From assembly GCA_963729605.1 (NCBI GenBank), contig CAVSNY010000005.1, positions 64,001 to 128,000 on the forward strand: DNA of 64,000 nt, read 5' to 3'. The DNA is from an uncultured Gammaproteobacteria bacterium. GTDB taxonomy: Bacteria; Pseudomonadota; Gammaproteobacteria; DRLM01. Below, piece after piece: positions 1,614-56,661 of this stretch. A model generated the notes under the pieces. It was not told where the DNA came from. It saw only the letters and a list, made by a program, of their open reading frames with translations, and did not search any database. The position numbers and the translations under genes are program-made. Each line of letters opens with the position of its first letter. Position 1 is the first letter of the stretch.

Positions 1614-1668
1614 GTTTATTCACACGTAAATCGACACTGGCATGGGTATAAGTTTAGTCAAAAGATTA

Positions 1669-1715
1669 ACCACCCCGTCCGCTGCGCGGCCACCCCTCCT
1701 TGAAAAGGAGGGGAG
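1669..1715 (+). repeat. Two-hairpin REP-like element, singlet, followed by a degenerate 18-bp tandem (1735-1818)
   Basis: ACCACCCCGTCCGCTGCGCGGCCACCCCTCCTTGAAAAGGAGGGGAG between rmlC and rmlD. Confidence 0.9.
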
Positions 1716-1941
1716 ATTGATATTCCCATGCACGTCTCTATTTCCCAAGGTCTTTCTCTTTCCCGAGGCTCCTCTATTTCCCGAGGCTCTTATATTTTCA
1801 GGCTCTCCTATATTTGCATACGCTTCGAGGAAGAACGTACTAATAAAGTGACGCGCATGAATAGGACGGTATGAAGAGAAAGATAAAATCTATCGCTTTA
1901 TCCATGTTGGTTCCCGAATAAATCATAAACTGGCGCGATAA

Positions 1942-2505
1942 TTAACTGGCGCGGTAATTCGGCAAACGCTCAGCCGCGATTTCCGATAAACGCAAACCTG
2001 CGGAATCTTTGGCTGACAGCTGGGGCGACTCATTGAATGGCCACTGGATACCAATATCCGGATCGTTCCAAATGATGCTTACCTCGGCTTTAGGCGCATA
2101 ATAGTCGGTGCATTTATAAACAAACAGGGCCACGTCACTTGTCACCACGAAGCCGTGGGCGAAACCCGGCGGCACATACATCTGCCGCTTGTTGTCGCTG
2201 GACAATGTCACGCCCACCCATTTGCCAAAGTTAGGCGAACCCAGCCGCACGTCCACCGCCACATCGAACACCTCGCCCTGCAACACCTGTACGAGTTTGC
2301 CTTGCGGATTTTCATATTGAAAATGCAACCCGCGCAAAATGCCCCGGCGGGAAAACGAGATATTGTCCTGCACAAAGGGCCCGGCGATGCCCGCCTCGGC
2401 ATAACGTTGGGCCTGGTAGCTCTCCAGAAAATAGCCGCGCTCATCGCCGAACACCTTGGGCTCGATGATCACTACACCGGGCAATGCGGTTTCAATGATT
2501 TTCAT
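1942..2505 (-). CDS. rmlC: dTDP-4-dehydrorhamnose 3,5-epimerase
   Basis: [25 protein letters not shown] motifs. Confidence 0.95.
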
Positions 2506-3380
2506 GTCGGCGTACCGCGCTGCAAAAGATTACGGAGATAATCGCCATAACCATTCTTGCTATATTGCGTGGCGATCTGTTCCAACTGTGCCGCGTCGAT
2601 CCAACCGCCGTTGAAAGCAATTTCTTCCGGGCAGGCAACTTTCAAACCCTGCCGCGCCTCGATGGTTTCAATAAAATTCGACGCCTGCATCAATGATTCG
2701 TGGGTGCCGGTATCCAGCCATGCCACACCGCGCCCGAGTTTTTCCAACTTCAATTGGCCTTTTTCCAAATAGTGATTATTGATGTCGGTGATCTCCAACT
2801 CGCCACGCGGCGAGGGCGTGAGGGTGGGCGCGATATCCACCACTTGGTTATCATAAAAATAAATGCCGGTCACCGCATAATTGGAACGGGGTTGCTTGGG
2901 CTTTTCCTCGATGGCGGTCACCCGCCCGGTATCGTCAAACTCCGCCACGCCGTAACGCTGCGGGTCTTTCACCCAATAACCAAACACCGTGGCGCCCTCG
3001 CGGCACTGCGCGGCGGACAATAAAAGCTCGGTCATGCCGTGACCGTAAAAAATATTGTCGCCCAACACCAAACAGCAGGTCTGATCGCCGATAAACTGCC
3101 GGCCGATGATAAACGCCTCCGCCAAACCCCCGGGGACTGCCTGCACCGCATATTGAAGGTTAATACCCCATTGACGGCCGTCACCCAATAATTGCTGGAA
3201 CAACGTTTGATCGTGCGGTGTGGTGATAACCAGGATATCCCGGATGCCGGCCAGCATCAGCGTGGACAAGGGATAGTAGACCATCGGTTTGTCGTATACA
3301 GGCAGCAATTGTTTGCTGATCATTTGCGTCAACGGATAGAGCCGGGTACCGGATCCGCCGGCGAGGATGATGCCTTTCAT
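2502..3380 (-). CDS. rmlA: Glucose-1-phosphate thymidylyltransferase
   Basis: [34 protein letters not shown]. Confidence 0.97.
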
Positions 3381-3451
3381 GCTTTTTCCTTCACTCTTGT
3401 TTTCAAGAGGGTCGAGATGAAACGGGCCAAGCCCGATGGATTAAATACAAA

Positions 3452-3496
3452 ACCACCCCGGCCCTACGGGCCACCCCTCCTTATGAAAGGAGGGGA
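3452..3496 (+). repeat. Two-hairpin REP-like element, singlet
   Basis: ACCACCCCGGCCCTACGGGCCACCCCTCCTTATGAAAGGAGGGGA; its flanks resemble those of the copies at 35783 and 36192. Confidence 0.9.
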
Positions 3497-3721
3497 TAAA
3501 ATCCCAAACAACAACGTGATCATGAATCCAATTCCGGAAGTGTCGCGATGTTTCGCGGCCCTCAGTAAACAATTCGCACCTCCGTATGCGAATTGAACTC
3601 GATCTCACGATCTTGATTCCTTTTGCCCAACATCCTGCGTCCGCCCCGATGCGCTATTACGCGGCACGTCAGAGGGCTACCACAATGACTGACGCCGCTT
3701 CGCGGCCTACCGCGGGCTTTT

Positions 3722-4165
3722 CGCTTCGCCTCGTCCCGCTTCGCCTCGTCCCGCTTCGCCTCGTCCCGCTTCGCCTCGTCCCGCTTCGCCTCGTCCCGCT
3801 TCGCCTCGTCCCGCTTCGCCTCGTCCCGCTTCGCCTCGTCCCGCTTCGCCTCGTCCCGCTTCGCCTCGTCCCGCTTCGCTTCGTCCCGCTTCGCTTCGTC
3901 CCGCTTCGCTTCGTCCCGCTTCGCTTCGTCCCGCTTCGCTTCGTCCCGCTTCGCTTCGTCCCGCTTCGCTTCGTCCCGCTTCGCTTCGTCCCGCTTCGCT
4001 TCGTCCCGCTTCGCTTCGTCCCGCTTCGCTTCGTCCCGCTTCGCTTCGTCCCGCTTCGCTTCGTCCCGCTTCGCTTCGTCCCGCTTCGCTTCGTCCCGCT
4101 TCGCTTCGTCCCGCTTCGCTTCGTCCCGCTTCGCTTCGTCCCGCTTCGCTTCGTCCCGCTTCGCC
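3722..4165. repeat. 15-bp minisatellite CGCTTCGCYTCGTCC, about 29.6 copies
   Basis: Perfect period 15; first 10 units carry C, next 19 carry T at the variable position. Confidence 0.95.
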
Positions 4166-4374
4166 CTCCTTGGCTCGTCGAATGCACGCATCTAATTCAG
4201 ATGACGCGCGAACAGAGGCCAAGAAGTATTACCTCTCAAAAATCGGCATCCAAGTCACTCCGCGACTCATACTCGCCTCTTGCCAGTCCTGACTCGTGAT
4301 CGCCTCGGTAAATCCACAACTCGCCGATTACCTTGGAGCGCTCGCGATAAAGTCATTCAGCACACTATCGTGGA

Positions 4375-5442
4375 TTATACCCCTTCGCCGCCCGCCACCC
4401 CTAACCGCTCACCGCGATAGCTGCCGTCCAGCACACGTTGCCACCAGCCGCGATGGTCCAGATACCACTGCACGGTCTTACGCAAACCCGATTCGAAGGT
4501 CTCATGGGGACGCCATCCCAGCTCGCGTTCGATTTTGCCGGCGTCGATGGCGTAACGCCGGTCGTGACCGGGGCGGTCGGTTACAAAGGTGATGAGCTTG
4601 GCGTGCGGCGCATGCGATGAACCGGGCACCAATTCATCCAACAAAGTGCAAATCGCCTGCACCACTTCCAAATTGGTGCGCTCGTTGTGCCCGCCGATGT
4701 TATAGGTCTCGCCCAACCGCCCTTTTTCAAGCACCAGGCGTAAAGCGCGGGCGTGGTCGTCCACATACAGCCAGTCGCGGATATTGTCGCCCTTGCCGTA
4801 CACCGGCAGCGGCTCGCCGCGCAGGGCCTTGATGATGACCAAGGGAATCAATTTCTCGGGGAAGTGATAGGACCCGTAATTATTCGAGCAATTGGTGGTG
4901 ACAACCGGTAAACCATAGGTGTGATGCCAGGCACGCACCAAATGATCGGAGGACGCCTTGCTGGCGGAATAAGGCGAATTGGGTTGATAAGGCGTCTCTT
5001 CAGTGAAGAAGCCCTCCGCGCCCAGCGAACCGTAAACCTCGTCGGTGGAAATGTGGTGAAAACGGAAGCCCTGCTTCCGATCAGCCGGTAATGCCGCCCA
5101 ATACTCCCGCGCGGCCTCCAGCAAAGTGTACGTGCCGATGATATTGGTCTCGATGAATTGGGCCGGCCCATCGATGGATCGATCGACATGGGACTCGGCG
5201 GCGAGGTGCATTACCGCGTCCGGTTGATATTGCGTAAACAATCGTTGCAACGCCGGGGCGTCGCAGATATCCACCCGCTCGAAGTGATAACGCGGATTCG
5301 TCGCCACCTCCGCCACCGATTCGAGATTGCCGGCATAAGTGAGCTTGTCAACGTTGATGACCGTGGCCTCGCTCTCGGTGATCAACTGCCGAACGACCGC
5401 GGACCCGATGAACCCCGCGCCACCTGTAATAAGTATTTTCAC
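4375..5442 (-). CDS. rmlB: dTDP-glucose 4,6-dehydratase
   Basis: [32 protein letters not shown]. Confidence 0.97.
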
Positions 5443-5570
5443 AAATTCATCTCTTTATTTCGGTTCATGCCTGTGCTCCGCTTTGCCTCAAACCGTTTTC
5501 ATCCAAATCACTCTTTCCGGCATTCGGGTAATTTCTGGGAAAGTTAAACCACGCCGTTCATCAAGGCCAA

Positions 5571-6148
5571 ACCACCCCGGCGCTGCGCGCCACCCCTCCT
5601 TGGCAAGGAGGGGAGTAATTTGTGGTTGCACTGTCTCATCAATACTAAACCTGCTTATGTCGTTCCGGTCGTGGTTGCTCATCTCTCGTCTATTTCTTTC
5701 ATGTCGGCACCTTCCCGCACCGGCGCGTCTTCCCGGCCTGGAAAGGCTCAACCACCCCGGCGCTGCGCGCCACCCCTCCTTGGGAAGGAGGGGAGTAGTT
5801 TGTGGTGGCATTGCCTCATCAATGCTAAATCTGCTTATGTCGTTCCGGCCGCGGCTGCTCGTCTCTCGGCCATTTCTTTCATGTCGGCACTTTCCGCACT
5901 GGATCGCCTTCCCGGCCTGGAAAGGCTCAACCACCCCGGCGCTGCGCGCCACCCCTCCTTGGGAAGGAGGGGAGTAATTTGTGGCTGCATTGCCTCATCA
6001 ATGCTCAACCTGCTTATGTCGTTCCGGCCGCGGTTGCTGGTCTCCCATTTATTTCTCTCATGGCGGCACTTTCCGCACCGTCTTCCCGGCCTGGAAAGGC
6101 TCAACCACCCCGGCGCTGCGCGCCACCCCTCCTTGGGAAGGAGGGGAG
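5571..6148 (+). repeat. Tandem array of four two-hairpin elements (5571, 5751, 5930, 6104; period 174-180 bp)
   Basis: 45-bp core nearly identical in all four; intervening ~130-bp segments are related but more diverged. Confidence 0.95.
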
Positions 6149-6279
6149 TAATTTGGGATCTCATTGTACTTATCGCTCACACCACAGCTTCTCATTCATC
6201 GTTTATTCTTTGTATGGCTCTCATGTCCATTGCTTCCGCAGCCGCGTTTGTCGCGATGGTGTTTTTTGTAGCGGATATC

Positions 6280-6325
6280 CTCCCCTCCTCTACGAGGAGG
6301 GGTGCCCCGTGAGGGGCGGGGTGGT
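6280..6325 (-). repeat. Two-hairpin element starting 3 bp after the DUF559 stop codon
   Basis: Reverse complement reads ACCACCCCGCCCCTCACGGGGCACCCCTCCTCGTAGAGGAGGGGAG. Confidence 0.9.
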
Positions 6326-6328
6326 GCG

Positions 6329-6685
6329 CTACGAAGTAAAGTGCTCGCGAATTACCACCAATACACCTTCCAAATTTTCCATGACCTCACGATTCTCAAA
6401 CCGCAGCACCCGCAGCCCCTGGGTCATTAAATAATTTGTCCGCGCGCTATCTCGCTGCCAAGCCTTCTCGCTATCATGTGCCGCACCGTCCAGCTCAATT
6501 ACCATACGCTCACCAGGACAGTAAAAATCCACGATATAGGGTCCGATGCTGTGTTGGCGGCGAAATTTTCTACCTGCAATCCGCCCACCTTGTAATTGTT
6601 TCCACAATCGCGCCTCGGCCGGCGTGAGCTGGGCTCGCAAAAATCGACGAACTGGCTTTAAGCTCTGTCGATTGTGAATCTTCAT
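6329..6685 (-). CDS. DUF559 / Vsr-like (very-short-patch-repair fold) endonuclease domain protein
   Basis: TPAEARLW, KFRRQH, YIVDFYC, IELDGAAH, RDSART, GLRVLRFEN pattern typical of DUF559/YcjD-like proteins. Confidence 0.9.
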   Translation of the reverse strand: MKIHNRQSLKPVRRFLRAQLTPAEARLWKQLQGGRIAGRKFRRQHSIGPYIVDFYCPGERMVIELDGAAHDSEKAWQRDSARTNYLMTQGLRVLRFENREVMENLEGVLVVIREHFTS

Positions 6686-6793
6686 TTCATTCTCAAGTCT
6701 TCAGGCTACTTATAGTTCAGTAAAAGCAGAATGATTCCGCTCTATCCGCTAAATCGCTTTGGAAAGACCCGCATTACGGCAGCACTCGAGCAA

Positions 6794-6838
6794 ACCACCC
6801 CGGCGCTACGCGCCACCCCTCCTTGAAAAGGAGGGGAG
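6794..6838 (+). repeat. Two-hairpin element upstream of the DUF559 gene, inverted relative to the 6280 copy
   Basis: ACCACCCCGGCGCTACGCGCCACCCCTCCTTGAAAAGGAGGGGAG. Confidence 0.9.
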
Positions 6839-7420
6839 AATTGATGGAGTAGGATTCCTGCGCCATCTTTACTCCTCTCTCCTCTCCTCTCCTCTCCTCT
6901 TCTTTTCTTTACTCCCCTTCTCGTCTTTACTCCCCGCGTCTATGAACATTGATTATTTCCCGAGAAATAATGATATGGAGCGCAGATGGTTAACCGGCTG
7001 GAAAGCTATATCCCAATTTTGAGATAGGTTCTAGATCAATGCTAAACCTGCTTAACTTTCTTTGCGAACCGCCCAAAACCTGCTAACTCGTCTCTTAATC
7101 CGCGCCAAGCTACCATCATTCCGCCATGCACGTCCTTACCCCGGAAGAAATGCATACACTAATCTGGGCCGTACCCAATCATTCTTCCGCCATCATCCTT
7201 GCGGCATTCTTGCACCATGCATTTTTCCACCATGCACGCTTATCTCTTATCCTGCCGTGCCTATATGCCATCGTCCTACTTGTTCCCACCGTCACGTCTT
7301 CAAACGGAGCGCGTCACTCGGGAGCAGTCACGCGGGTTGGTTTTCTCGCCGTATCGTCCTACTTGTTCGCACCCCGTCGCGTCCTCAAACTAACGAGGGC
7401 GGCAATTTGATGCCGCACGC

Positions 7421-8906
7421 CTACTTGCTCGCACCCCGCCCATACACATCCTCGAATCGCACGATGTCATCCTCGCCGAGATAAGCTTCCCGACTGCACC
7501 TCGATGATCTCCAGGGGCAGGCTGCCGGGGTTTTCCAAGCGGTGTTGCACACCCAGCGGGATATAGGTCGATTGGTTTTCGGTGAGCAGAAACACTTCTT
7601 CGCCGCGGGTCACCCGCGCCGTGCCGCGCACCACAACCCAATGTTCGGCGCGATGGTGATGCATTTGCAACGACAGCGTGGCGCCAGGCTTCACGATGAT
7701 CCGCTTCACTTGAAAACGCTCGCCGGCGTCGATGCCTTCATAACTGCCCCAAGGCCGATAGACGCGGCGGTGGGTCAGGCGTTCGCTGCGATTCTCCGCC
7801 TTGAGCCGCTCGACAATTTTTTTGACGTCCTGCGTCTGGCTTTTGTGGGCCACCATCACCGCGTCGGCGGTCTCCACCACCACCATGTCTTCCAGCCCTA
7901 CCCCGGCCACCATCCGGTATTCGGAAATCAGCAGGCTATTGCGAGTGGCGTGGGTATACACATCGCCCTTGGTCACATTGCCGTCGATATCGGGCATGCC
8001 CACCTCCCATACCGCCGACCAGGCCCCCACATCCGACCACCCGGCGGCCAACGGCACCACCGCGGCCCACAAACCCTCCACCGGCTGGCTGGTCAATTTC
8101 TCCATCACCGCGTAGTCGATCGAATCGCTGGGGCATTGGCTAAAGGCCTTTTTGTCCACCCGATAAAAATCCCGGTCCTGCACCCCACCCTCGTCGGCAC
8201 GCCGGCACGCCGCCAGGATATCGGGCCGGTATTGCGCCATGGCCCGCAGCCACACGGCGGGCTTCATCACGAACATACCGCTGTTCCACAAATACTCGCC
8301 GCTCGCCACATAACCCTCGGCCGTGGCCCGGTCCGGCTTCTCGACAAAGGTCGCCAGCGCACGGGGCGCGACCGCCGTCGAGCCGTCGCGCGAAGGGCGC
8401 AGCGTATCGCCCACTCGAATATAACCGTACCCCGTCTCCGGCCCGCTGGGTACGATCCCGAAAGTAACCAGTGCGCCCTCCTCGGCCAAGGCCACCGCTT
8501 CGGCCATCGCGACCCCGAACGTCACCGGATCGCGAATCACATGATCGGCCGGCATCACCAGCATCACCGCCTCATCGCCGTTTTTCTCAAGCGCCAGGGC
8601 CGCCAGCGTCAGCGCCGGCGCGGTATTGCGGCCCGCCGGTTCGAGGATGATGGTAGCGTCGGACACACCCAATTCCCGCACCTGCTCGGCCACCATAAAA
8701 CGGTGTTCCTCGTTACACACCAGCAGCGGCGTACCCATGACGAAGGGCGGGATCGCCTTTCCCAGGCCCTCCATCCGCGACACCGTTTCCTGCAACAGGG
8801 AACGGCTGCCGAGAAAGGCCAGCAGCTGCTTGGGATAATGTTCACGGGACAGGGGCCAAAGGCGGGTGCCGGAGCCCCCGGAAAGAATGATGGGTTGCAG
8901 CTTCAT
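7421..8906 (-). CDS. manC: Mannose-1-phosphate guanylyltransferase/mannose-6-phosphate isomerase (apparent +1 frameshift at ~7484)
   Basis: PIILSGGSGTRLWPLSR, NTAPA, WSDVG, cupin SLQMHHHRAEHW; conserved tail YLGEDDIVRFEDVYGR lies in another frame after AGC-T-TAT. Confidence 0.93.
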
Positions 8907-9116
8907 ATTATTTTCCGATGAGTCACAAAGCCAACGCGACCAAGCCTCTAACGGACCAGGGCGACAGCGCAACTATAACAAAAGAAGATCAAAGCCGTAC
9001 ACCAACAGCGGTTAAGTCTTCATCAAGGCTTTAAACCACCGCTCCTCCACTATCACACTCACTTGAGCGGGAGTACTGAAGAGGCAAATACACTGCGTCA
9101 AACCCCGCGACCGAAT

Positions 9117-9676
9117 CTCCCCTCCTTATCAAGGAGGGGTGCCCCCGAAGGGGGCGGGGTGGTTCGCGCCGTGCCTTTAAAAAACACCACCCCGGCGCTA
9201 TCGCGCCACCCCTCCTCGCTTGAGGAGGGGAGTGAGGAGACATGCGATCTTCATCGCGGGGGGAAGGCTCAACGCAGCAATTGCGAAACACCCCCTGAAA
9301 TCACAAAACACCGTCTGAATCTGAAAGGGGCAAGTACACTGCGTCAAACCCCGCGACCGAATCTCCCCTCCTTATCAAGGAGGGGTGCCCCCGAAGGGGG
9401 CGGGGTGGTTTACGCCGCGCCTTTAAAAAACACCACCCCGGCGCTATCGCGCCACCCCTCCTCGTTTGAGGAGGGGAGTGAGAGACAAGCAATCTTCTTC
9501 GCGCGGGGCGTCTGAAGCTGAAGGGGACAAGTAACAGTGCGTCATAAACCCCGCGACCGAATCTCCCCTCCTTCTCAAGGAGGGGTGCCCCCGAAGGGGG
9601 CGGGGTGGTTTGCGCCGTGCTTTAAAAACACCACCCCGGCGCTATCGCGCCACCCCTCCTCACTTGAGGAGGGGAG
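9117..9676. repeat. Three tandem head-to-head doublets of the two-hairpin element (minus copies 9117, 9363, 9563; plus copies 9186, 9432, 9630)
   Basis: Each unit is a minus copy, a ~20-22 bp linker with a TTTAAAAA core, then a plus copy; unit period 246 and 200 bp. Confidence 0.95.
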
Positions 9677-9715
9677 TGAGGAGACTTGATCTTGATCGCG
9701 GGGGAAGTGTAGTGG

Positions 9716-10923
<1,208 letters not shown>

Positions 10924-10963
10924 TCACCCAGAATCAGGTGGCCAAATCGACTATGCCACTACA

Positions 10964-10988
10964 ACCCCTCCTCGCTTGAGGAGGGGAG
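10964..10988 (+). repeat. Truncated two-hairpin element (second hairpin only) directly abutting the IS end
   Basis: ACCCCTCCTCGCTTGAGGAGGGGAG followed by TGAGGAGAC, the same flank as the 9.1-9.7 kb units. Confidence 0.85.
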
Positions 10989-11066
10989 TGAGGAGACAAA
11001 CGATCTTCATCGCGGAAGATGGCGGGGCAGAATGGCGGGAGAGAATACTCAGCTATTGCGAAACGA

Positions 11067-12170
11067 CTAAACCTGCCCGCTCGACTCGGCGGCGGGGGCA
11101 GTAGTGTTTACGGCCTTTGCTTCCACCTGCTGCTGCTCGGCCCAGACCACCTTCGCCAAATAGTTCAAGGCCAGCACATACAGCCCGAAAAGGCCCAAGA
11201 AACTGAGCAACATCACCCCATCCGATAATTGCCCGGTGTGGCCGACTATCCCGACGATGGCGAACAACAAACCCAGCGCCCAAATCAGCATGGTCGTTTG
11301 CTTCACCGAATAACCCGCCGCCAGCAGGACATGGTGAAGATGCTGCCTATCCGCGGAAAACGGCGACTGCCCCGCCATGAGCCGGCGCAACATCACCGCC
11401 ACCGTATCCATCAGCGGCACGGCGAATATCCACAACGCGATCACCGGATGCATGATCCGATGGTCGCCTTGGGAAAACTCGATCAGGAAACGGGCGATGA
11501 CGAAGCCCAGGAACAGACTGCCGGCATCCCCCATGAAGACCTTCGCTCGCTTGCGCCACGGACTGCGGGCATTGAACACCAGGAAGCCGGCCACACAGGC
11601 TATCAGCACCATGAGCACATCCAAGTCCTGCGACATACCGGCGTCATAAGCCAGATAGGCCAGCGAACCCAACGTGATCAGGACCAGCCCCCCGGCCAAC
11701 CCATCCAAACCGTCGGACATGTTAACCGCGTTGAGCACGCCCACCGTGCAAAAAATCGTAAAAGGTATGGCCAAGGCCCCCAACGAGAGTATCTCCCCGA
11801 AGGACAACCACCCCAAATCCTCCAGCGCGACACCACCCACCAAGGTCAACAATAAAGCGGCAACCACCTGCGCCAGAAAGCGCACACGCTTACTGAGTTC
11901 CTGCAAATCATCCAACATGCCAATGACCACCAGCAAAAATCCGCCGGTGATAAGGGCTGGAAATCGTTCCCAAGGGGCATAGATCAGGCTCAAGCCCACA
12001 CAGAATCCGATGAACATGGCCAGGCCGCCCACCAGCGGAACCTGCCCCACATGCAGCTTCCGCGCGTCCGGCTCGTCCACCAGGCCAATCCGATTGGCCA
12101 ATAGGGGAAGAACATAAACCATAGCCATTACCACGGCCATGACCACCAGCGCAGTAAACACTATCCCCAC
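11067..12170 (-). CDS. wecA: Undecaprenyl-phosphate GlcNAc-1-phosphate transferase (MraY/WecA family)
   Basis: Multi-TM; DEPDARKLH, GMLDD, NMSDGLDGL, FMGDAGS, ADRQHLHH. Confidence 0.88.
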   Translation of the reverse strand: MGIVFTALVVMAVVMAMVYVLPLLANRIGLVDEPDARKLHVGQVPLVGGLAMFIGFCVGLSLIYAPWERFPALITGGFLLVVIGMLDDLQELSKRVRFLAQVVAALLLTLVGGVALEDLGWLSFGEILSLGALAIPFTIFCTVGVLNAVNMSDGLDGLAGGLVLITLGSLAYLAYDAGMSQDLDVLMVLIACVAGFLVFNARSPWRKRAKVFMGDAGSLFLGFVIARFLIEFSQGDHRIMHPVIALWIFAVPLMDTVAVMLRRLMAGQSPFSADRQHLHHVLLAAGYSVKQTTMLIWALGLLFAIVGIVGHTGQLSDGVMLLSFLGLFGLYVLALNYLAKVVWAEQQQVEAKAVNTTAPAAESSGQV

Positions 12171-12561
12171 TGTGCCTCCTAATCCCGTTTATTAAATTCC
12201 TTAAGTATTCCTAGTAGCGTCCAGGCGACTCCATAAAAGCATTGTTTCTAGAAATACCATAATCAATCTTGTGTAATTTTTTGCAAACACCCAAACTAGA
12301 AAATCATGTATTACAAACAGGAGGTTACACGGACTTAAGTTCTCATACAAGTCATAAGATAACCCATTTTACAAATTTACTTCTCAGACATCAGATGGCA
12401 GAAACGACTGAATTAAAACTTAATTAATAGCAATTTAAGGAGGTTTCCGAACGTTAATGTAAGCGCTCATTCACAGACAACTAAGGCGGGCACATACATC
12501 GAGCAAAACATATGCCACTCAAAATTAGTCAGCTACACTGCAAAACTTCCAGAAAATATCG

Positions 12562-16640: not shown

Positions 16641-16657
16641 TTAAGCTTCCCCATTCA

Positions 16658-23696: not shown

Positions 23697-23713
23697 GCAC
23701 GTCTCCAATGAAT

Positions 23714-26662: not shown

Positions 26663-26667
26663 TGAGT

Positions 26668-27870
26668 TCACGCAGCGCGAGTATGTTGTGAAGTTGGTGT
26701 GGTTGTCTTATTGGAATTTAGCAGTCGCGTTAGCGCATTCTCATAGGCGAGAAAACATTCTTCTTCGTCAAAATGTTTCTCCAACATACGGCGAGCATTG
26801 CTTGTCAGACGATGACAGGTATCAGAGTTACTTAGTAACTTATGAATAGCATTCATAAGACCTTCGTTGTCGCCATAAGTAACCAACAAGCCGGTTTGAT
26901 CGTGCTTGACGACTTCGCCAGTACCTCCGACATCGGTCGCAATGACGGGGACACGAGCCGCCATTGCCTCCAATACAACGTGCGGCAGTCCTTCATAGCT
27001 AGAATTGAGAATAAAAAGGTCAGAAGTCTCCAGCAGAGCACGCACCTTTGACTTGGATATCTGCCCCAGAAAGATAACTCGGTCGGCAATCCCATAACTC
27101 AGAGCCTGCTGTTGAAGCTTGGCCTGCTCGGGGCCCTCACCCGCAATCACCAATCGTGTATTGGGAAGATTGTGTAAAGCTTCTATAAGTCGATCCACGC
27201 CTTTCCATGGCACTAGACGGCAAACAGTAGTGATTGTTTTGCCATGGTACGCGGGAAGAGTGAGTTCATCTGCCGGCTGATCGAGTTGGGTTGAATTGTA
27301 GATGATCTGAAGCGCCCTGTTATTCGTATTCCAGCCGCTGACAATTTTGGCCAGGTAATGACTGGGGGTGATGATGAGGTAAGCGCGAGCAAGGGAAGTG
27401 TCACGGAGTTTATCGAGCAGGCGAAATCGCAATGATTTCGATAAATGCTGATAATCATCAATGGTGCCAGAATACCATTTGCGGACGCGAGCGATTTCCC
27501 AAGCACGGTCACCTACTACTTTGTGCAACTCTGGCTTCCGCAATAGCGTCGCTGCTATACGTGTTTCAAGATCAAGGCCATTAGCAAATACAATATTTGC
27601 AGATTTTCCTAGCTTGTAGATAGCAGAGATGGTGGTCACCAACCGCTTAAGCCGAGACCCACGACGGAGAATGCGATGGACTTTAAAAGGATAGCAGGTG
27701 TCATCATGATCGATGATGTCACTCCAGCAGACAACTTGTACCGTATGCCCTCGTTGCGTTAGCCAATGAGAAATGCGTGGCACAAAGTTGGCCGGGCCAC
27801 CTATATCGGGCGGAAAAATACCGGATAAAATAAGAATGTTCAATCGTGATGTTTTCACATATCTATACAT
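26668..27870 (-). CDS. GT4 glycosyltransferase
   Basis: FPPDIGGPA, RLVPWKG, EGLPHVVLEAMA. Confidence 0.9.
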   Translation of the reverse strand: MYRYVKTSRLNILILSGIFPPDIGGPANFVPRISHWLTQRGHTVQVVCWSDIIDHDDTCYPFKVHRILRRGSRLKRLVTTISAIYKLGKSANIVFANGLDLETRIAATLLRKPELHKVVGDRAWEIARVRKWYSGTIDDYQHLSKSLRFRLLDKLRDTSLARAYLIITPSHYLAKIVSGWNTNNRALQIIYNSTQLDQPADELTLPAYHGKTITTVCRLVPWKGVDRLIEALHNLPNTRLVIAGEGPEQAKLQQQALSYGIADRVIFLGQISKSKVRALLETSDLFILNSSYEGLPHVVLEAMAARVPVIATDVGGTGEVVKHDQTGLLVTYGDNEGLMNAIHKLLSNSDTCHRLTSNARRMLEKHFDEEECFLAYENALTRLLNSNKTTTPTSQHTRAA

Positions 27871-27872
27871 AG

Positions 27873-28827
27873 TTAGTTGGACATAGTCGTATCGGCGCGT
27901 TTTCTCTTAATGGATGAAAATATTACTGCGAACAGGATGCTCATTAACAAGCCCGCAGCAAACCCCATCGCAACAATCATTTTTCGATCCGGTTTACTTT
28001 TCGTCTCAGGCACCACCGCCCGATCGATTATGTTGAATGCATATTGATCCCGCGCGTTGGCGAGCATGATGTTTTTTGTTTGAGCCTCGATCAGTCGATA
28101 GATTGATTGCTGCATTTCCAACACGCTAGTCTTAGCTAATTGATCCTTGAGATAGGCAAGACTCTTCTCAGCCTCTGTAATCGCGGCCTGTTGCTCATGC
28201 CAGTTCAACCGCTCCACCATGAGGTTGGCCCAGAGTGCCGCTTGCTGGGGATCCTTCCACTCGATAGCCAGAGTGATCAGTCCAGTCTTTTTGTCCTGTG
28301 TGATGGTACGGATGTTGTTATCAAAGATTTGATAGGCTTTCCGCAATGTCGGTGTATTTTTGGGATCCTCTACTAGCCATGTTTTATTCTGCGGATCCCA
28401 TATGTCACTAAACAACACTGGTAACAACTTCTCGTCCTGGATAAAGGCATCGGTAAATGCTCGCGACTTCAAAACTGCAATAACCCTGTCCACAGAATTA
28501 CCACCCGAACCGATGTTAATGCCCGCTAATGAGGCGATTCCGCCCAACTCCCCTGCGAGAGCGGACAACCGGCCACCTTCTTCAGGAGAGTACTGGTGCC
28601 AAAGTAACCTCAGCACGATAAATAGGGGGCATCCACCAGGCAATTGCCGCCGACGCGGCCGTCGTAACTAATGTTACTGCTAGAATTAGCCACTTGAACG
28701 AGACCAACACGCGCCACAAATCCAACAAGTTGACCTCATCCTCCGCAACTGCCTCCTGCGGTTGAAGGTAGTACACCACCTGAGAGGGTTCAGCGCTCTT
28801 TGTTGGGCCTTGCTCGTTCATTTGCAT
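27873..28827 (-). CDS. Wzz-family chain-length determinant (apparent +1 frameshift at ~28590)
   Basis: N-part DEVNLLDLW, TM1, P.Y.A; C-part IIDRAVVPE.KSKP and TM2; the two parts are in different frames. Confidence 0.85.
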
Positions 28828-28897
28828 ATCCAGGGTATATCTTGTCTATAACTCATAGATAATTGCATTGTAGTTCTACATCAAATCGAAGCATCGT

Positions 28898-28933
28898 GGA
28901 CTCGAGTTTTTGCGCAATCACTTCCCTATCCAC
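28898..28933 (-). pseudogene. N-terminal stub of a HEPN/DUF86 (HepT-like) toxin
   Basis: GTG-DREVIAQKLES overlaps the MNT gene end and resembles DUF86 N-termini; similarity stops after ~12 codons. Confidence 0.5.
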
Positions 28934-29319
28934 AGTTGCCTCCTGTGCGCGAGAATGCGGTTGCGATAAGGCAGGAAATCCGCATGGTCGAAGACATGTC
29001 TGCGAATCAATTCGCCATACTGCGTATCACTGCCGAGGATTCTTTTACCATACTTTAATACTTGTCCAAGCAGGGGCTCGCCGACGGCACGGATGTCCAC
29101 CAAGTCGACCGGACGGCCGGTTTCCCCCGCCAATTCGGTAATCAACTGTATTTTTTCTTCCGTCGTAAGACGACGGCCCGCATCTACCGCAAGATCAAGA
29201 TCGCTGTCCGCGCGTCCTTTACCTGCCGCCAATGAGCCGAACAAGATCGCCAGGCGTATTTGGGGATACGCGCTTAAGACGGCTAGCAGAGTTTGGTTTA
29301 GTTCGGTGTCGGTGGTCAT
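28918..29319 (-). CDS. Minimal nucleotidyltransferase (MntA-like antitoxin)
   Basis: LFGSLA.G...DSDLDLAV, VDLVD. Confidence 0.88.
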   Translation of the reverse strand: MTTDTELNQTLLAVLSAYPQIRLAILFGSLAAGKGRADSDLDLAVDAGRRLTTEEKIQLITELAGETGRPVDLVDIRAVGEPLLGQVLKYGKRILGSDTQYGELIRRHVFDHADFLPYRNRILAHRRQLWIGK

Positions 29320-29410
29320 GTCGTAGTAATGAATCTCGCCAAGGCGCTTCGCCCCAGGCATTGCTATGTTCCACTTCCCTGCCTCTCTCCCGAGAGGGGA
29401 AAGAACAGCA

Positions 29411-31906
29411 CTAGAGTACACCCACGGCATTCCAGGCCGCGATGGCCAAGCCGAATTGATAGACGATCTGGCTCACGCTGGTCCATAAAGTGAGCGGACG
29501 CAAGCGTTCCACATCCAAGGGCACCACGATGGTATCGCCGGGTTTTATGTGCACTGAACTGCGCTGAAACCACTTGCTGGACTTACTCGCTATCACCGCG
29601 CCGTTGGCGCGCACCACATAAATGCGGTCGTCGTCGGCCTTTTTGGTCAGGCCGCCGCTGGAATTGATGTATTCATCCCGTTTAAGCCCGGCGCGGTACA
29701 GATGCGAAGTGGGATGAAACACTTCGCCAATTACCGTGACCTCTTGCGTGAAAGGCGGAACCACCAAGGTGTCACCTTCTTTTAAGACCACATCGGCTTC
29801 TGGTTTGCCCGCGACTACGGCGGGCAGATCGATCACCAAACGGCCGGCGGCCTTGACCCGTTCCAGTTGGCTGGACAAGTCTTTCATGATTTGCAGTTCT
29901 TGTAGTTGATCGGCCTTGGTCTCCACCTGCATCTGTTGCAGGCTGAGGCTCGCCAAATCCTCCTGCAAGCGTTGCTGCAAGGTGTCCAACTGCTCCTGTT
30001 CACGCCGGCGCAGTTCTTCGCGCATGAATACCGCGCCGTCGGCGTAGGCGTAATCGGTGAGCCCGCCGGCGCGGGCGATCACGCTGCTGAGGGTTTCGCC
30101 GCGGCGAATCGGATAAGTGCCGGGAAAACGCACCTCTCCGCTGAGTTTTATTTGTCCTTGCGCCGCCCACTGCGGCACTTCCTTCACATTGAGATGATCG
30201 TGCGGATGCAGCGCCACGTCCGCGCCGGGCTTGCCGGCCAGAGCATCACCCAAATTGATCTTTTGCAGTTGCACCTCGCGGTATTCGCCGTTGACCACGC
30301 CATAACGGGTCAACTCGGCCTCCAGGGAGTAGGCCGCCTCACCCAGTTGTCCGCCCGCCCGCAGCAAATCGCTGACGCGCATATCGGCTTCCAGCGGATA
30401 TGTGCCGGGAAAACGCACATTGCCATCTACCGTCACTACCGGTGACGGCTGTTCCAAACTCGCTTGTTGGGTAAGCTGGTCCACTAGTTCCTCGATCACC
30501 TCGCCCCGGGCTTGGGTGGCGCCGAACACCAACACTTCATCGCGCGGGGCCAACCGCACGTCGGCGGACGAGCCCGGCTGATCCAAGGCTTTGCGCAAAC
30601 TGGCGGAGAACACCAGGATGCGCCGATCCGGCTTCAGCTCGCGCTTGATCACCAGGTAATCCAAGTCGGGCTTGGGCATCAATTCGTCCGGCGAGGCGAT
30701 CAAATTACTCAAGCGCATGCCTTCCCGCCATTGATACCCGCCGGGGCGCTGCACGTGGCCGGAGAGCAAGACGACGCCTTCCATATTTTCCAATATGGAA
30801 TGGACTCGTAAGACATCGCCATTTTGTACCGGCGTGGCGAGCACGGCCGGCGCGCTTAAATTCACATCCAGCAAGGTCCGTTCGCGCTGATTGTTGATCC
30901 GCTCCAATTGAGCGCCGGTCGGATACGCCGTGGAGAGCAGGCCGCCGCTGAAGGCGAGCGCCTCCCCGAGGGTCTTTTCGTGTTTCATTTCGTAAATCGC
31001 CGGACGCTTCACCTCACCCGCTACCCCGACCGTGGCGCCGATGGGCGGGACGAAGATGACGTCGCCCGGTTGCAGGCGGGCGTCGGCGCGGGTATCGCCG
31101 CGCAACAGGAGATCGTAAAGATCCAGGCGGGTGATTATTTCGCCGTTGCGTTTGAGTTGTATGTCGCGCAGCGACCCGATGGGTTTGACGCCGCCGCTCA
31201 CGAGCAAGGCATTGGTCATGGTGGACAGGCCGCTCACCGTGTAGGAGCCGGGCTGTTGCACGTCACCCAGCACGAAGACGCGGATGGAGCGCAGCGGGCC
31301 CAGGCTGATGTTCGCCCGCACGCCGATCAATTGCTGCTCCACCCGCTGCATGAGGTTGTCTTTGAGTTCGGGGAAACGCAGTCCCGCCACCGGCACCGGC
31401 CCAATGCCGGGGAAATTCAAGGTGCCGTCGCGACCCACCGGCAGGGTGTATTCAGCGTTGTCCTTGCCGAATAATTGCACTTGCACCATGTCGCCGGGAC
31501 CGACGATGTATTCGGCGGGCACCGGAATGTCGGTGGCCGGGGCAAAGGTGGTGGGGGAACCGGCGAAGAGATCGTAGCCGAATTGTTTGAGGCTCTGGCT
31601 ACTCTTTTGAGTTTTTTGTTTCTCGCTGAGCGAGGACTCATCCGCCGTTTTGCTTGCCTCCTCCATGGGAGAGGTCGGCTGCGTCGTGCGCGGTTTGGTT
31701 AATTCGGGAAATGCCGGCGCGGCTTGGGTCCGGCCCGCGCCCTCCCGTTGGTTGAGCAGCTCCTGGGCCTTGGCCTGCTCCTCCGGGGACAACTGCTGGA
31801 ATAGCTGGCGCTGTTCGGGGGTGAGCTCCACCGCCTGCACGGCCCATGCGAACCCGCAGGTCAGCACGACTCCCAATACGCCTTGAAAGACTTTCCTAGA
31901 CTTCAA
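29411..31906 (-). CDS. Polysaccharide export protein with multiple SLBB domains (Wza/KpsD-like)
   Basis: Signal peptide, QFGYDLF, YIVGPGD, repeated G.V..PG.Y SLBB motifs. Confidence 0.9.
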   Translation of the reverse strand: MKSRKVFQGVLGVVLTCGFAWAVQAVELTPEQRQLFQQLSPEEQAKAQELLNQREGAGRTQAAPAFPELTKPRTTQPTSPMEEASKTADESSLSEKQKTQKSSQSLKQFGYDLFAGSPTTFAPATDIPVPAEYIVGPGDMVQVQLFGKDNAEYTLPVGRDGTLNFPGIGPVPVAGLRFPELKDNLMQRVEQQLIGVRANISLGPLRSIRVFVLGDVQQPGSYTVSGLSTMTNALLVSGGVKPIGSLRDIQLKRNGEIITRLDLYDLLLRGDTRADARLQPGDVIFVPPIGATVGVAGEVKRPAIYEMKHEKTLGEALAFSGGLLSTAYPTGAQLERINNQRERTLLDVNLSAPAVLATPVQNGDVLRVHSILENMEGVVLLSGHVQRPGGYQWREGMRLSNLIASPDELMPKPDLDYLVIKRELKPDRRILVFSASLRKALDQPGSSADVRLAPRDEVLVFGATQARGEVIEELVDQLTQQASLEQPSPVVTVDGNVRFPGTYPLEADMRVSDLLRAGGQLGEAAYSLEAELTRYGVVNGEYREVQLQKINLGDALAGKPGADVALHPHDHLNVKEVPQWAAQGQIKLSGEVRFPGTYPIRRGETLSSVIARAGGLTDYAYADGAVFMREELRRREQEQLDTLQQRLQEDLASLSLQQMQVETKADQLQELQIMKDLSSQLERVKAAGRLVIDLPAVVAGKPEADVVLKEGDTLVVPPFTQEVTVIGEVFHPTSHLYRAGLKRDEYINSSGGLTKKADDDRIYVVRANGAVIASKSSKWFQRSSVHIKPGDTIVVPLDVERLRPLTLWTSVSQIVYQFGLAIAAWNAVGVL

Positions 31907-32016
31907 GCTGCGGAACCCCTCTGTTCATAGCCATCGTAGTCATGCCGTCAGCATCTCCTTCGCCAGTAAGGACCGAAGAAATCTACCACAATACAAGCAG
32001 ATAAAATACCCGGCAC

Positions 32017-33071
32017 GGTGATTTTTCCGATATGGCGAGTGTTGCATGGCTTCTTCCATCTGCGGGAGAAGGACATGAATGGCGCATCGGAAAATAATGC
32101 GGGCTGAATAAACGATCAGCGGAATGGACCCCCGCCGGTTCAACAAAGAGCAAACCACCCCGGCCCTGCGGGCCACCCCTCCTTGTAACAAGGAGGGGAG
32201 AACATTACAAACAACGACCACGCACGGGGTTAGTTCGCGGTGCAGATCAAACTCCGATACCCCCCTCCCCTCCGAAGAGAGAAATATTTCGACGTCCCCG
32301 CGCGACGCTCGCACGATCAAGCTCGACAACTCCCCTCCTCTCCGAGGAGGGGTGGCCCGCAGGGCCGGGGTGGTGCGCATCAAAATCATCCGCCCTCGAA
32401 TCACTCAATACCGCCATTGCCACTGCACATCCACGTGATTTTCCGATATGGCGGGTGAGAGAAATATTTCGACGTCCCCGCGCGACGCCTGCACGATCAA
32501 ACTCCGATGACTCCCCTCCTCTCCGAGGAGGGGTGGCCCGCAGGGCCGGGGTGGTGCGCATCAAAAATCATTCGCCCTCGAATCATTCAATACCGCCATT
32601 GCTACTGCACATCCAGGTGATTTTTCCGATAGGGCAGGTGTTACATGGCCTCTTCATCTGCGGGAAAAGAGCATGAATGGCGCATCGGAAAATAATGCGG
32701 GCTGAATTAACGATCAGCGGAATGGACCCTCGCCGGTTCAACAAAGAGCAAACCACCCCGGCCCTGCGGGCCACCCCTCCTTGTAACAAGGAGGGGAGAA
32801 CATTACAAACGGCGATCACGCACGGGAGTTAATTCGCGGCGCGGATCAACTCCGATAACTCCCTGAGAATCGAAACCGGCCGCCGCGTTGTAATAGCGTT
32901 AATTCCGCGGTGCAGATCAAACTCCGACAACTCCCCTCCGAAGAGAGGAATATTTCGACGTCACCGTGCGGCACTTGCGCGATCAAACTCCGATAACTCC
33001 CCTCCTCCCCGAGGAGGGGTGGCCCGTAGGGCCGGGGTGGTGCGCATCAAAATCATTCGCCCTCGAATCAT

Positions 33072-33100
<29 letters not shown>
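32017..33100. repeat. Nested tandem duplication (~600-bp unit) with five two-hairpin elements (plus 32154, 32752; minus 32330, 32511, 32997)
   Basis: 32017-32615 and 32616-33100 align; an internal ~180-bp duplication is also present; the unit includes the last 29 nt of wzi. Confidence 0.9.
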
Positions 33101-34532
<1,432 letters not shown>

Positions 34533-34850
34533 GATGGAGAACAATCCCTGGTCCTTTTGGTGAATGAGGAAACCGCTGAATTTATGTCCCGTTCCTCGTA
34601 TTGGAAAATGGAGGAAACGGGCGAAAGGCGTCAAACACGCTCTTGCCCCCGCAACCCCGCCCGGCAAGAGGGCAAAACGAAGGGGTTGGTTTAATCTTAA
34701 ATTCCCCGTGACAAGCCGCGCGGACAAGGCGATAGGGGATTCTCCCCTTGAGCAGGCGCGGAGATCCGTTCCCCGTGCGCGGTCAGACCTATTTAATCCA
34801 ATCCTCCGGCATTTTTCCACGAATCCCGCTTCAAGGAAACCCGCGCGGAC

Positions 34851-34878
34851 AAAAAAACGGGCGCCTGCGGGCGCCCGT
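34851..34878 (-). terminator. Intrinsic terminator after comEA
   Basis: GC-rich hairpin ACGGGCGCC...GGCGCCCGT followed by T7 on the minus strand. Confidence 0.75.
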
Positions 34879-34929
34879 GTAATTTCAAACTATAAACTGC
34901 TTACAACAATTTTAAATATCCATCACGGA

Positions 34930-35214
34930 TCAACGAACAGGCTTGGCCTCGCCCACGGTGATCACCTCGCGGTTCATCTCGACGAGTTTCTTGCCGATGC
35001 CGCTCACCCCCGCCAACTGATCAAGGGATTTAAACGGTCCGTGTTTCTTACGATGCTCGACGATGGCCTCCGCCTTGGCCGGCCCCACACCCTTGAGTAT
35101 CTTCGCCAAGGTTTCGGCGTCGGCGGTATTGATATTCACCGAACTGCTTGCCGCCATGGCCATGGCGGCACCGCTCAACAACAAGGCAAACAGCGTTTTT
35201 TGAATAAACTTCAT
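34930..35214 (-). CDS. comEA: ComEA-family helix-hairpin-helix DNA-binding protein
   Basis: Signal peptide, VNINTA, LKGVGPAKAEAIV, GIGKK. Confidence 0.9.
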   Translation of the reverse strand: MKFIQKTLFALLLSGAAMAMAASSSVNINTADAETLAKILKGVGPAKAEAIVEHRKKHGPFKSLDQLAGVSGIGKKLVEMNREVITVGEAKPVR

Positions 35215-35470
35215 CCTGAGTCTCCTTCCAATTATGTATTAGGTTTTGGAAGTGTCCTTGGAGACAACCGCGCAACTTTCTATCTCCTCCCTGGCGCTAA
35301 CTCGCACCGCCGTTCAGCCTAGCAGCTCGCATAAAACCCTGCAATTTATCAGTTATAAATTAGCGTGAGGAAATATTCGGATACACAAATTAATAACTCT
35401 TCTCTTTGAGGTGGACTTCGGGTGTATAGCGAATTGAGGCGACGTCCACCCAGCGCGCGCATCTCTGATG

Positions 35471-36340
35471 CACCCCTCCTTATGATAGGGGGGATAAATC
35501 CCAAATACTCCGCCGCACACCCAACTCTGATTTCCAGGACACTCGCTCTGATCCCAGCACTCTCTCTCCGCCCCAGGACACTATCTCTCCCCCGGCTCCT
35601 GAGCAGTACCGAGGCAGATTCCGACGAAATGTTCCTGATACCACGACACACATCATCTCCCCTCCTCTCCGAGGAGGGGTGCCCTCGCAGAGGGCGGGGT
35701 GGTGCGCTCAGGGACCGCTCATCCTCGTACCTTTCCTTCAGCCATTCCGCCGTTCACATGCGATGCCTCTTACAAAAACAAAACCACCCCGGCCCTGCGG
35801 GCCACCCCTCCTTATGAAAGGAGGGGATAAATCCCAAATACTCCGCCGAAAACACTATCGCGCCAAAACATACCGCGCAGTAACACACCGCGCCGAAACG
35901 CTGGGCCGCACGCCCAACTCTGATTTCCAGGACACTCTCTCTGTCACAGGACACCATTCTGATCCCAGCACTCTCTCTGTCCCGGGACACCATCTCTTCC
36001 CCGGCTCCTGAGCAGTACCGAGGCAGATTCCGACGAAATGTTCCTGATACCACGACACACATCATCTCCCCTCCTCTCCGAGGAGGGGTGCCCTCGCAGA
36101 GGGCGGGGTGGTGCGCTCAGGGACCGCTCATCCTCGTACCTTTCCTTCAGCCATTCCGCCGTTCACATGCGATGCCTCTTACAAAAACAAAACCACCCCG
36201 GCCCTGCGGGCCACCCCTCCTTATGAAAGGAGGGGATAAATCCCAAATACTCCGCCGAAAACACTACTGCGCCGGAACATACCACGCCGGAACATACCAC
36301 GCCGAAACACACTGCGCCGAAACACACTGCGCCGAACACT
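35471..36340. repeat. Tandem duplication (period 409 bp) with two-hairpin doublets (minus 35657, 36066; plus 35783, 36192; degenerate 35471) and 15-bp minirepeats
   Basis: ~35590-35850 is nearly identical to ~36000-36260; GCCGRAACAYACYRC repeated ~6 times at 36254-36340. Confidence 0.92.
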
Positions 36341-43208: not shown

Positions 43209-43246
43209 AGCACTCGCTCATTCCTCAATAAACTATTCGTCATCGA

Positions 43247-43384: not shown

Positions 43385-43479
43385 TTAACTCGTCTCATGC
43401 CCTGCCCTCTACCTCCGACCGATTTCAGCCGGAATCGGAGGTCACACACCTTGTTATTCACTGGCCGGATTATGAATGG

Positions 43480-56640: not shown

Positions 56641-56661
56641 TTAAATAAAACGGTTCTCCTC

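Follow-up and report, generated by a model that had tools for sequence, protein, structure and literature searches.

Short structured repeats of the REP/BIME type, as found in the REPIN-RAYT systems, flank a gene for an HUH (Y1) tyrosine transposase (TnpA-REP) and carry a conserved tetranucleotide foot. A second group, the BoxC/PIT/TM repeats, has been known since the 1990s and forms triplexes in vitro (PMC4666352). For TMECO, triplex formation by the isolated strand was demonstrated by circular dichroism and nuclear magnetic resonance (NMR); neither a function nor a partner protein had been assigned to these repeats, and the fold had no support from within cells (Holder et al. 2015, PMC4666352, with Hoyne and Maher cited there). 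The present analysis concerns a 45-base repeat in a stretch of 64,000 nucleotides (nt) from an uncultured Gammaproteobacteria bacterium (GCA_963729605.1, contig CAVSNY010000005.1, positions 64,001 to 128,000; hereafter the window), together with a gene of the DUF559 family that is bracketed by two of the copies. The repeat may be considered a dispersed intergenic element with a predicted triplex of the G-rich strand that has a hairpin as its turn, and the bracketed DUF559 protein the likely nuclease that would recognize the fold and spread the repeat. Taken as a whole, this reading is moderately probable.

The repeat resembles BoxC/PIT/TM in the order of its parts on the G-rich strand (pyrimidine arm, loop, purine arm, turn, G/T third strand), in its intergenic location in both orientations with variation between close relatives, and in the presence of two types that pair as inverted heterotypic doublets, as TM types A and B do in E. 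coli (PMC4666352). There are also differences. The arm of the repeat (family A) is CCCCTCCT(T/C), whereas the TMECO arm consensus is CCCTCNCCC, one that family B of the same genome does fit. The second loop of the window copies consists of a 13–15-nt hairpin (stem 1) plus one base, in contrast to the 3 nt of TMECO and the 1–6 nt allowed by the ITxF search (PMC4666352). A nuclease gene is bracketed here, while Holder et al. describe no mobility gene next to TMECO and mention neither a DUF nor an endonuclease (PMC4666352). Since the repeat has a class II triplex motif but exceeds the TM loop limit and departs from the TMECO arm consensus, it is regarded as a variant of BoxC/PIT/TM.

The organization of the repeat also recalls the REP/BIME-RAYT systems, with short structured repeats of a single-stranded DNA type in alternating inverted doublets, tandem arrays, a small nuclease gene flanked by repeats, gene-less derivatives and a repeat family tied to a gene clade. 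In contrast to those systems, the flanked gene encodes a Vsr-like PD-(D/E)XK nuclease rather than an HUH tyrosine transposase, and the motif is a triplex plus a hairpin. No conserved tetranucleotide foot is evident in the aligned copies, and no Y1 transposase family was found among the 56 window proteins scanned. Because the enzyme is the wrong one, the repeat is not placed in REP/BIME-RAYT; it is likely a selfish, REP/BIME-like repeat with DUF559 as its structure-reading nuclease.

Leader, arms and folding strand

A motif search located 89 copies of the repeat in the 3.48-Mb genome, compared with 1, 0 and 2 copies in three locally shuffled genomes. None of the 89 lies inside a long open frame, the orientations are equal (40/41), and 23 fall in the 35 kb around the DUF559 gene, where 0.9 would be expected. 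By exact motif search, the interval 1669–36236 of the window holds 23 full copies, 14 plus and 9 minus. They occupy the intergenic gaps of a surface-polysaccharide locus that includes rmlDCAB, manC, glycosyltransferases, export genes and wzi and extends up to pyrF (here and below, the names rml, manC, wzi, pyrF and bioF are labels from Pfam matches or translation). Between 177 and 37216, every gene identified through Pfam runs on the minus strand, which bears out the sequence-only reading of this window in its claim that the repeat occurs in both orientations within a uniformly minus-strand locus.

That reading had described a fixed leader, ACCACCCCG, ahead of two hairpins whose fold is kept through compensatory change. 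The five stem-1 variants that it quoted were located at their places and strands (5571 and 32154 on the plus strand; 9118–9163, 35658–35703 and 6281–6325 on the minus strand), and the quoted stem-2 loops are all present in the copies. Of the 82 copies that parse cleanly, 70 have a fully paired stem 1, the other 7 of the 89 having been left out as mis-parsed or degenerate. In a set of 29 distinct copies selected for a stem 1 of 13 nt, pairing holds in 95.2% of cells compared with 75.0% in shuffles, and two-sided changes occur at 4 of the 5 pairs, a result matched by none of 500 shuffles and by no slid register. Compensatory change in stem 1 is therefore upheld, with the proviso that the shuffle control ignores the relatedness of the copies. 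Three arm types account for 58 of the 82 copies and carry most of the stem-1 signal, so the independent events within the genome number about six or seven rather than dozens.

The leader itself fared differently. Its boundary needs a small correction, since the last G is the first base of stem 1; nor is the leader fixed. Read backwards, it is the stem-2 pyrimidine arm with A replacing T, and it varies along with stem 2. The two hairpins therefore stand but are not the complete unit, as the leader covaries with stem 2 in the manner of a third strand. Stem 2 spans 8–10 bp in the parsed copies, inside the range of 6–15 nt for the paired arms of the class II motif, and its pyrimidine arm is 5' on the G-rich strand. 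Along that strand, the pyrimidine arm is followed by the loop and the purine arm; next come a single unpaired T, the hairpin of stem 1 and, in mirror register, a third strand of G and T. This order is the one that defines the intrastrand triplex of the class II purine motif, with a pyrimidine arm, loop, purine arm, linker and G/T strand (PMC4666352).

If the mirror-image leader is a third strand, leader and stem 2 should change together. In 74 of 80 copies, and in 52 of the 56 that are distinct, an outer stem-2 pair T-A goes with an A before the leader and an outer pair C-G with a C; two further copies carry other letters and are outside the 80. The match holds within stem-1 classes (13/15, 10/10, 14/14 and 3/3). 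It extends to 19 arm classes at DUF559 loci of many phyla, where a perfect 9/9 mirror fit was obtained in 68% of class-balanced draws with a 30-nt flank and in 78% with a 60-nt flank. With permuted arms these values fall to 8% and 10%, and none of 3000 permutations reached the observed mean. Opposite an arm C, the leader has C in 259 of 270 cases; opposite an arm T, it has A in 59, T in 41 and another letter in 8 (n = 108), all counts coming from 42 distinct combinations preselected at a fit of at least 8/9. The interchange of A and T opposite an arm T fits the purine motif and not the pyrimidine motif: either letter yields a valid antiparallel triad on the G-rich strand, but an A would disrupt a pyrimidine-motif triplex of the C-rich strand. 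Thus, the third strand is compatible with antiparallel G.G-C and T/A.A-T triads across the copies, with exceptions in the outermost triad of Hymenobacter and in three CCCCGCC-arm copies.

While the arms remain the same, the linker between the purine arm and the third strand is either 1–4 nt or a hairpin of up to ~50 nt. Near DUF559 genes, 106 long linkers were counted and 113 short ones, and the two kinds alternate along the DUF559 protein tree. Of 37 long linkers, 26 fold better than 95% of their shuffles. The mirror covariation of leader and arm agrees with an intrastrand triplex of the class II purine motif whose 3-nt turn has given way to a hairpin, and the G-rich DNA strand very probably adopts such a fold.

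Evidence for the folding strand comes from the loops. On the G-rich strand, stem 1 is closed by C-GNA-G in 59 of 82 copies and by C-G(N2-3)A-G in 14 more; on the C-rich strand, none of the 82 copies has a C-GNA-G loop. The loops previously noted as tgc, tac and ttc are GCA, GTA and GAA on the G-rich strand, closed by C-G, and the mismatches of the 12 imperfect stems read there as G.A, A.A or G.T. In other genomes, 86 of 105 distinct long linkers fold to one hairpin, and these 86 have GNA on the G-rich strand in 43 cases (40 closed by C-G) as compared to 2 on the other strand. In DNA, d(GNA) loops are especially stable when a C:G pair closes them (PMC3201870), their RNA counterparts are much less stable (PMC13037366), and purine-motif triplexes cannot form in RNA according to Holder et al. 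(PMC4666352). Given GNA loops on the G-rich strand, and the same arms with turns of 1–4 nt elsewhere, stem 1 is most readily understood as a hairpin set into the turn between the purine arm and the third strand. The G-rich DNA strand is likely the one that folds. Where the sequence-only reading left a choice between folded single-stranded DNA and RNA, the evidence clearly favours DNA, and specifically the complement of the strand that it wrote out.

DUF559 genes and triplex motifs

The gene at 6329–6685 (minus) is an open frame for a 118-amino acid (aa) DUF559 protein, a putative Vsr-like endonuclease of the EDxHD type (Pfam PF04480, E = 1.4e-32; PDB 3HRL, E = 5e-21). Neither this gene nor the relation to the BoxC/PIT/TM repeats had been noticed in the sequence-only reading. 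A type-A copy of the repeat lies upstream of it and a type-C copy downstream, with both leaders facing inward. The putative catalytic residues E24, D53, E64, H70 and D79 are all present and conserved in 97–100% of 104 homologues, three alignment rows having been left out for stops or a short match; for E24, D53, H70 and D79 the figure is 99–100%. The EDxHD motif of Vsr-like nucleases was described from I-Bth0305I (PMC3239194). The D53-H70-D79 spacing of 17 and 9 is that of D196-H213-D222 in I-Bth0305I, and an upstream conserved Glu is shared as well, although by sequence alone the match is weak (E = 0.17). Unlike I-Bth0305I, the DUF559 protein has no separate DNA-binding (NUMOD) region and does not reside in an intron or intein (PMC3239194). 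A single-sequence AlphaFold model of the protein was of poor quality, with a predicted local distance difference test (pLDDT) score of 53. One relative came from a scan of viruses, and 27 plasmid records were matched at <60% identity. From its conserved residues, the gene likely encodes a DNA-cutting enzyme, and DUF559 is the candidate for the protein that the sequence-only reading supposed to read the fold.

The association of such genes with triplex motifs was considered at 127 loci, made up of 80 relatives from the genome collection, 22 strong family matches in the same class and 25 loci from the family of genome G061. A triplex-compatible motif lies no more than 250 nt from the DUF559 gene at 99 of the 127 (66/80, 15/22 and 18/25, respectively) and on both sides at 68; distal control windows 900–1150 nt away contain one in 2 of 112. 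One locus (L079/L197) was counted in two of the sets and is motif-free both times. Weak PF04480 matches have the motif in 0 of 8 cases. Among 60 relatives, a strong DUF559 match is present in 14 of 20 genomes with at least 5 repeats compared with 3 of 40 others (hand tally, Fisher test). With one genome per family, the counts are 6 of 10 and 3 of 39, or 5 of 9 and 3 of 39 without the unpublished genome G050, on which locus L100 also rests. The Pfam genome search missed its control, E. coli, although ycjD is annotated as DUF559, so that a lack of a DUF559 match in a genome may be a miss.

The genome has a second, TMECO-like family (family B) with CCCTC[AT]CCC arms (81 pattern matches), which flanks its other DUF559 genes, and the two intact DUF559 proteins of the genome belong to separate clades that differ in arm family. 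Along the DUF559 tree, the arm-family label changes 13 times as compared to 26.8 when shuffled; this is weak, since kin share labels and label shuffling ignores kinship, and the tree, built on few columns, leaves 49 of 101 forks open. In E. coli K-12, a TMECO match lies in the fabI-ycjD spacer (L174:1706–1740), ~170 nt downstream of ycjD, a DUF559 gene. A degenerate motif spans the ycjD stop codon and no motif was found on its 5' side. No literature tying DUF559/YcjD to triplex or BoxC repeats was found in a search that did not extend to subscription papers.

In bioF (G000:C7:685300–686250; L001:718–2535, minus), a 630-bp in-frame insert is composed of a DUF559 domain and TMECO-like repeats that are translated as Pro/Gly-rich linkers. 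Elsewhere in the family of this genome, several DUF559 matches also lie within long open frames of 561–928 aa. The family of G061 (L179–L203) has up to 8 DUF559 matches per genome, and hairpin-linker motifs dominate there (32 long and 12 short).

The hairpin-linker motifs flanking 18 of the 25 DUF559 loci in that family, whose genome G061 holds the Brevundimonas locus L079, provide a comparison to the CIR elements of Caulobacter. These are ~110-bp intergenic repeats of two hairpin arms and a linker, with a mobility mechanism described as unknown (Delihas 2008, PMC2229807). Compared by description only, CIR may be part of the triplex group, with the hairpin-linker motifs of the G061 family as CIR. 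Overall, with fair confidence, the proximity of motif and gene across these genomes points to DUF559 as the functional partner of the repeat.

Spread of the repeat and alternative readings

The ends of the repeat come as two types, A and C, and 37 of the 38 inverted neighbours combine one of each, as do the two ends of the cassette; in the window, doublets have been amplified in tandem. A possible route of spread may be considered in terms of a strand that folds and an enzyme that nicks it. The G-rich strand would fold when transiently single-stranded, during replication or under supercoiling, and G.G-C and T(A).A-T triads would form in the folded strand. Stem 1 would prolong the antiparallel purine and third strands as an ordinary duplex closed by the C-GNA-G mini-loop. 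DUF559 would bind and nick the DNA at the fold or close to it; the ends, with variable flanks, would be copied into new spacers or amplified in tandem by the repair or recombination systems of the host. Copying by host repair would account for imprecise borders and for the lack of target duplications, and the gene-less A+C doublets would be non-autonomous derivatives. That DUF559 is the main agent of spread is a tentative proposal, somewhat short of probable. In its broadest form, held slightly more loosely still, DUF559 and triplex ends may constitute a transposase-free class of selfish elements found across phyla. In such elements a 118-aa nuclease of the Vsr fold would read a single-stranded DNA triplex by its shape, tolerate any hairpin in the turn, and seed the BoxC/PIT/TM (and possibly CIR) repeats.

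Several observations weigh against the combined reading of triplex and nuclease. With respect to the fold, most Hymenobacter loci have a mismatch in the outermost triad, as a consequence of which the CCCCTCCTC class scores better with a neighbouring arm than with its own (8.72 vs 8.22). Three copies in the genome have an arm changed to CCCCGCC while the leader is unchanged. Nearest-neighbour DNA energies do not separate the two strands (15 vs 17 of 37), and Holder et al. saw no protection from dimethyl sulfate in vivo (PMC4666352). With respect to the enzyme, 28 of the 127 DUF559 loci are without a motif by the detector used and 6 of the 20 repeat-rich relatives have no strong DUF559 match; in G002 (63 family-A copies) and G012 (18), no DUF559 of the matching clade was found, the orthologous spacer of G002 being cut by a contig end. 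With respect to mobility, direct repeats around 10 isolated doublets were no longer than in a cross-pair control (means 5.2 vs 5.4 and 5.8 vs 5.45 nt), and neither 10 filled/unfilled site pairs nor bioF revealed sharp borders, the relatives being diverged. Lastly, 8 of 9 aligned dispersed doublet loci lie inside a 235-bp unit with TAG-ended inverted termini.

The site pairs were chosen from 40 congener loci because both flanks mapped; at these 10, G002 has copies where this genome has short copy-free spacers. The rmlB-manC spacer holds the cassette in G001; in G004 and G005 it measures only ~350–470 nt and contains a triplex motif that belongs to a different class. The bioF site is filled in G000, G003 and G005, with one motif in G002 and none in G004. 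The G001 bioF was considered as a clean empty site and rejected, as it keeps extra bases relative to G004 and is more likely a deletion scar. Neither the target-site duplication nor the precise termini expected of an insertion sequence (IS) or a miniature inverted-repeat transposable element (MITE) were found for the repeat, in a small sample of diverged relatives. The ragged borders and the absence of target duplications leave a transposon-like unit with fixed ends unsupported.

Two families with TAG-ended termini were observed in the genome. The 235-bp MITE-like unit, with an A+C doublet at its middle, is found at C2:27995, C2:205011, C3:395964, C5:40640, C7:576453, C7:848014, C7:180053 and C7:290119; its paired termini are 161–285 nt apart and no longer partner was seen. 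Window position 7017–7033 (minus) is one end of the other family, which has 62 matches genome-wide, delimits four elements of 836 bp in which a 265-aa frame resembles a transposase, and includes miniature forms of 142 bp and 350 bp. The 836-bp elements are presumably IS5-like. Some members of this family carry family-B triplex motifs.

These families bear on an alternative in which the triplex is real but the repeats owe their spread to transposase-driven MITEs that carry them and to slippage during replication, with no part for DUF559, which would be a host-type Vsr-like repair nuclease or a long-enclosed passenger. The 235-bp unit carries doublets at ~8 dispersed loci, the 62-match family supplies a transposase-like frame, tandem arrays would be local amplification, and there are repeat-rich genomes in which no cognate DUF559 gene was found. 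A repair role would agree with VsrA of Caulobacter, a DUF559 protein that triggers the SOS response without a cytosine methylase and for which very short patch or mismatch repair was proposed (PMC12907096). However, the 235-bp termini were matched nowhere in the window and explain a minority of the 43 clusters. A repair gene would not be expected to have the motif hugging it across phyla while the distal controls are nearly free of it, to reach as many as 8 matches in single genomes of the G061 family, or to sit in frame within genes such as bioF, and passive cargo leaves the kept triads unexplained. This alternative is the main rival, though an unlikely one.

It is considerably less likely that the repeat acts as RNA within the polysaccharide operon, where its two hairpins could stabilise the mRNA or serve as an attenuator or terminator. 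Every intergenic copy does have two strong hairpins and long open frames are avoided, and three window copies on the plus strand pass a terminator-like scan. Those three, however, lie on the untranscribed strand. In the window scan, terminator-like sites number 23 compared with 12.2 expected, an excess driven partly by repeats on that strand, and promoter-like sites are at the chance level (4 vs 4.6). On the C-rich reading, 10 of 89 copies have a T-rich tail after stem 2; on the G-rich reading, 21 of 89 have one after the leader. Since the expected U-tract is mostly lacking and the scan matches sit on the untranscribed strand, the repeat is not an intrinsic terminator, in agreement with the view of the sequence-only reading that a plain terminator is not involved. 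Its suggestion of a search of Rfam returned no family at the gathering threshold for the repeat, and at E ≤ 1 over 1500–11200 only two chance-level miRNA matches. The equal orientations and the conserved 3-nt GNA loop, typical of DNA, also argue against an RNA, as does the leader covariation, which needs a purine-motif triplex of a kind reported not to form in RNA (PMC4666352). PIT elements had neither promoter nor terminator activity according to Holder et al. (PMC4666352).

A G-quadruplex formed by the G-rich strand is very improbable, and so is an i-motif or a pyrimidine triplex formed by the C-rich one. Several G-runs do occur on one strand, and a quadruplex was raised as a possibility for TMECO by Holder et al. 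(PMC4666352), but the NMR data for TMECO supported a triplex (PMC4666352). Across the 19 arm classes, the leader follows the interrupting T of the arm, which neither a quadruplex nor an i-motif needs, and the use of either A or T in the leader is forbidden in a pyrimidine triplex. Equally hard to credit is covariation that reflects only the shared ancestry of a few repeat subfamilies without selection on the fold: the predominance of three stem-1 types, the inflation of counts by arrays and statistics that ignore phylogeny would favor it, but unrelated 10–50-nt linkers in different phyla still fold and still have GNA on the same strand, the leader fits the arm both within stem-1 classes and across arm classes, and long and short linkers alternate on the DUF559 protein tree.

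Setting in the window and significance

The cassette ends provide the clearest view of the repeat. The downstream type-C copy (6281–6325, minus) begins 3 nt past the DUF559 stop codon with its leader facing the gene. The upstream type-A copy (6794–6837, plus) also faces the gene with its leader, and its predicted folding strand is the G-rich (minus) strand; on the C-rich reading, it consists of a third-strand complement (6794–6801), the stem-1 hairpin (6802–6814), the pyrimidine arm (6816–6824), a loop (6825–6827) and the purine arm (6828–6836). Between rmlB and DUF559, a tandem array on the plus strand (5563–6155, period ~179 bp) contains four type-A copies at 5571, 5751, 5930 and 6104. Single type-A copies, both plus, are found between rmlD and rmlC (1669–1714, with a 6-bp stem 1 that has one G.A mismatch on the G-rich strand) and between rmlA and rmlB (3452–3496).

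Three tandem head-to-head A+C doublets, BIME-like in arrangement and occupying both strands, span 9118–9675 (9118–9163 minus/9186–9231 plus; 9364–9409 minus/9432–9477 plus; 9564–9609 minus/9630–9675 plus). A truncated copy with stem 2 only (10964–10987, plus) shares its tail sequence with the 9186 and 9630 copies. It lies on the far side of an IS3-like element (9716–10890, minus; HTH_Tnp_1 and rve frames), which is positioned between the doublet array and the truncated copy as if inserted into the array. A five-copy cluster on both strands (32154–33041) is located between a polysaccharide-export gene and wzi, with A copies at 32154 and 32752 (plus) and C copies at 32331, 32512 and 32998 (minus). 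Near pyrF, two head-to-head C+A doublets (35658–36236; 35658 minus/35783 plus and 36067 minus/36192 plus) reside in a 409-bp tandem duplication that adjoins the gene, and a degenerate stem-2 remnant lies close by at 35472.

Several other features of the window were noted. A dispersed repeat of ~170–200 bp (3545–3720) has at least 4 other copies in G000 and several in G001 and G002, where it is often no more than 350 nt from a family-A copy; it has no Rfam match. It is followed, between rmlA and rmlB, by 29.5 near-perfect copies of a 15-bp unit (3722–4164), with a spurious-looking pentapeptide-repeat frame on the minus strand. A stand-alone minimal nucleotidyltransferase (Polbeta) gene is found within the polysaccharide locus (28918–29430, minus). 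Three copies of another intergenic repeat of ~150 bp, with ends of the TTAAGGAA...TTCCTTAA type, are located at 43236–43388, 56488–56644 and 58775–58930.

Triads that covary over three strands argue for a fold that is maintained in cells. If true, this three-way covariation would be comparative evidence for a selected intrastrand DNA triplex in living cells. As the GNA-capped hairpin turn falls outside the loop limits of the published triplex search, the class would be larger than has been counted. With a named enzyme whose catalytic residues appear intact, both the origin of the triplex repeats and their reality in the cell become testable. If DUF559 proves to cut or move such folds, it would rank as a nuclease that reads triplexes and would give genomes a new route of plasticity, which in this case centres on a surface-polysaccharide locus, and the DUF559 proteins now labelled as repair enzymes would merit a second look.

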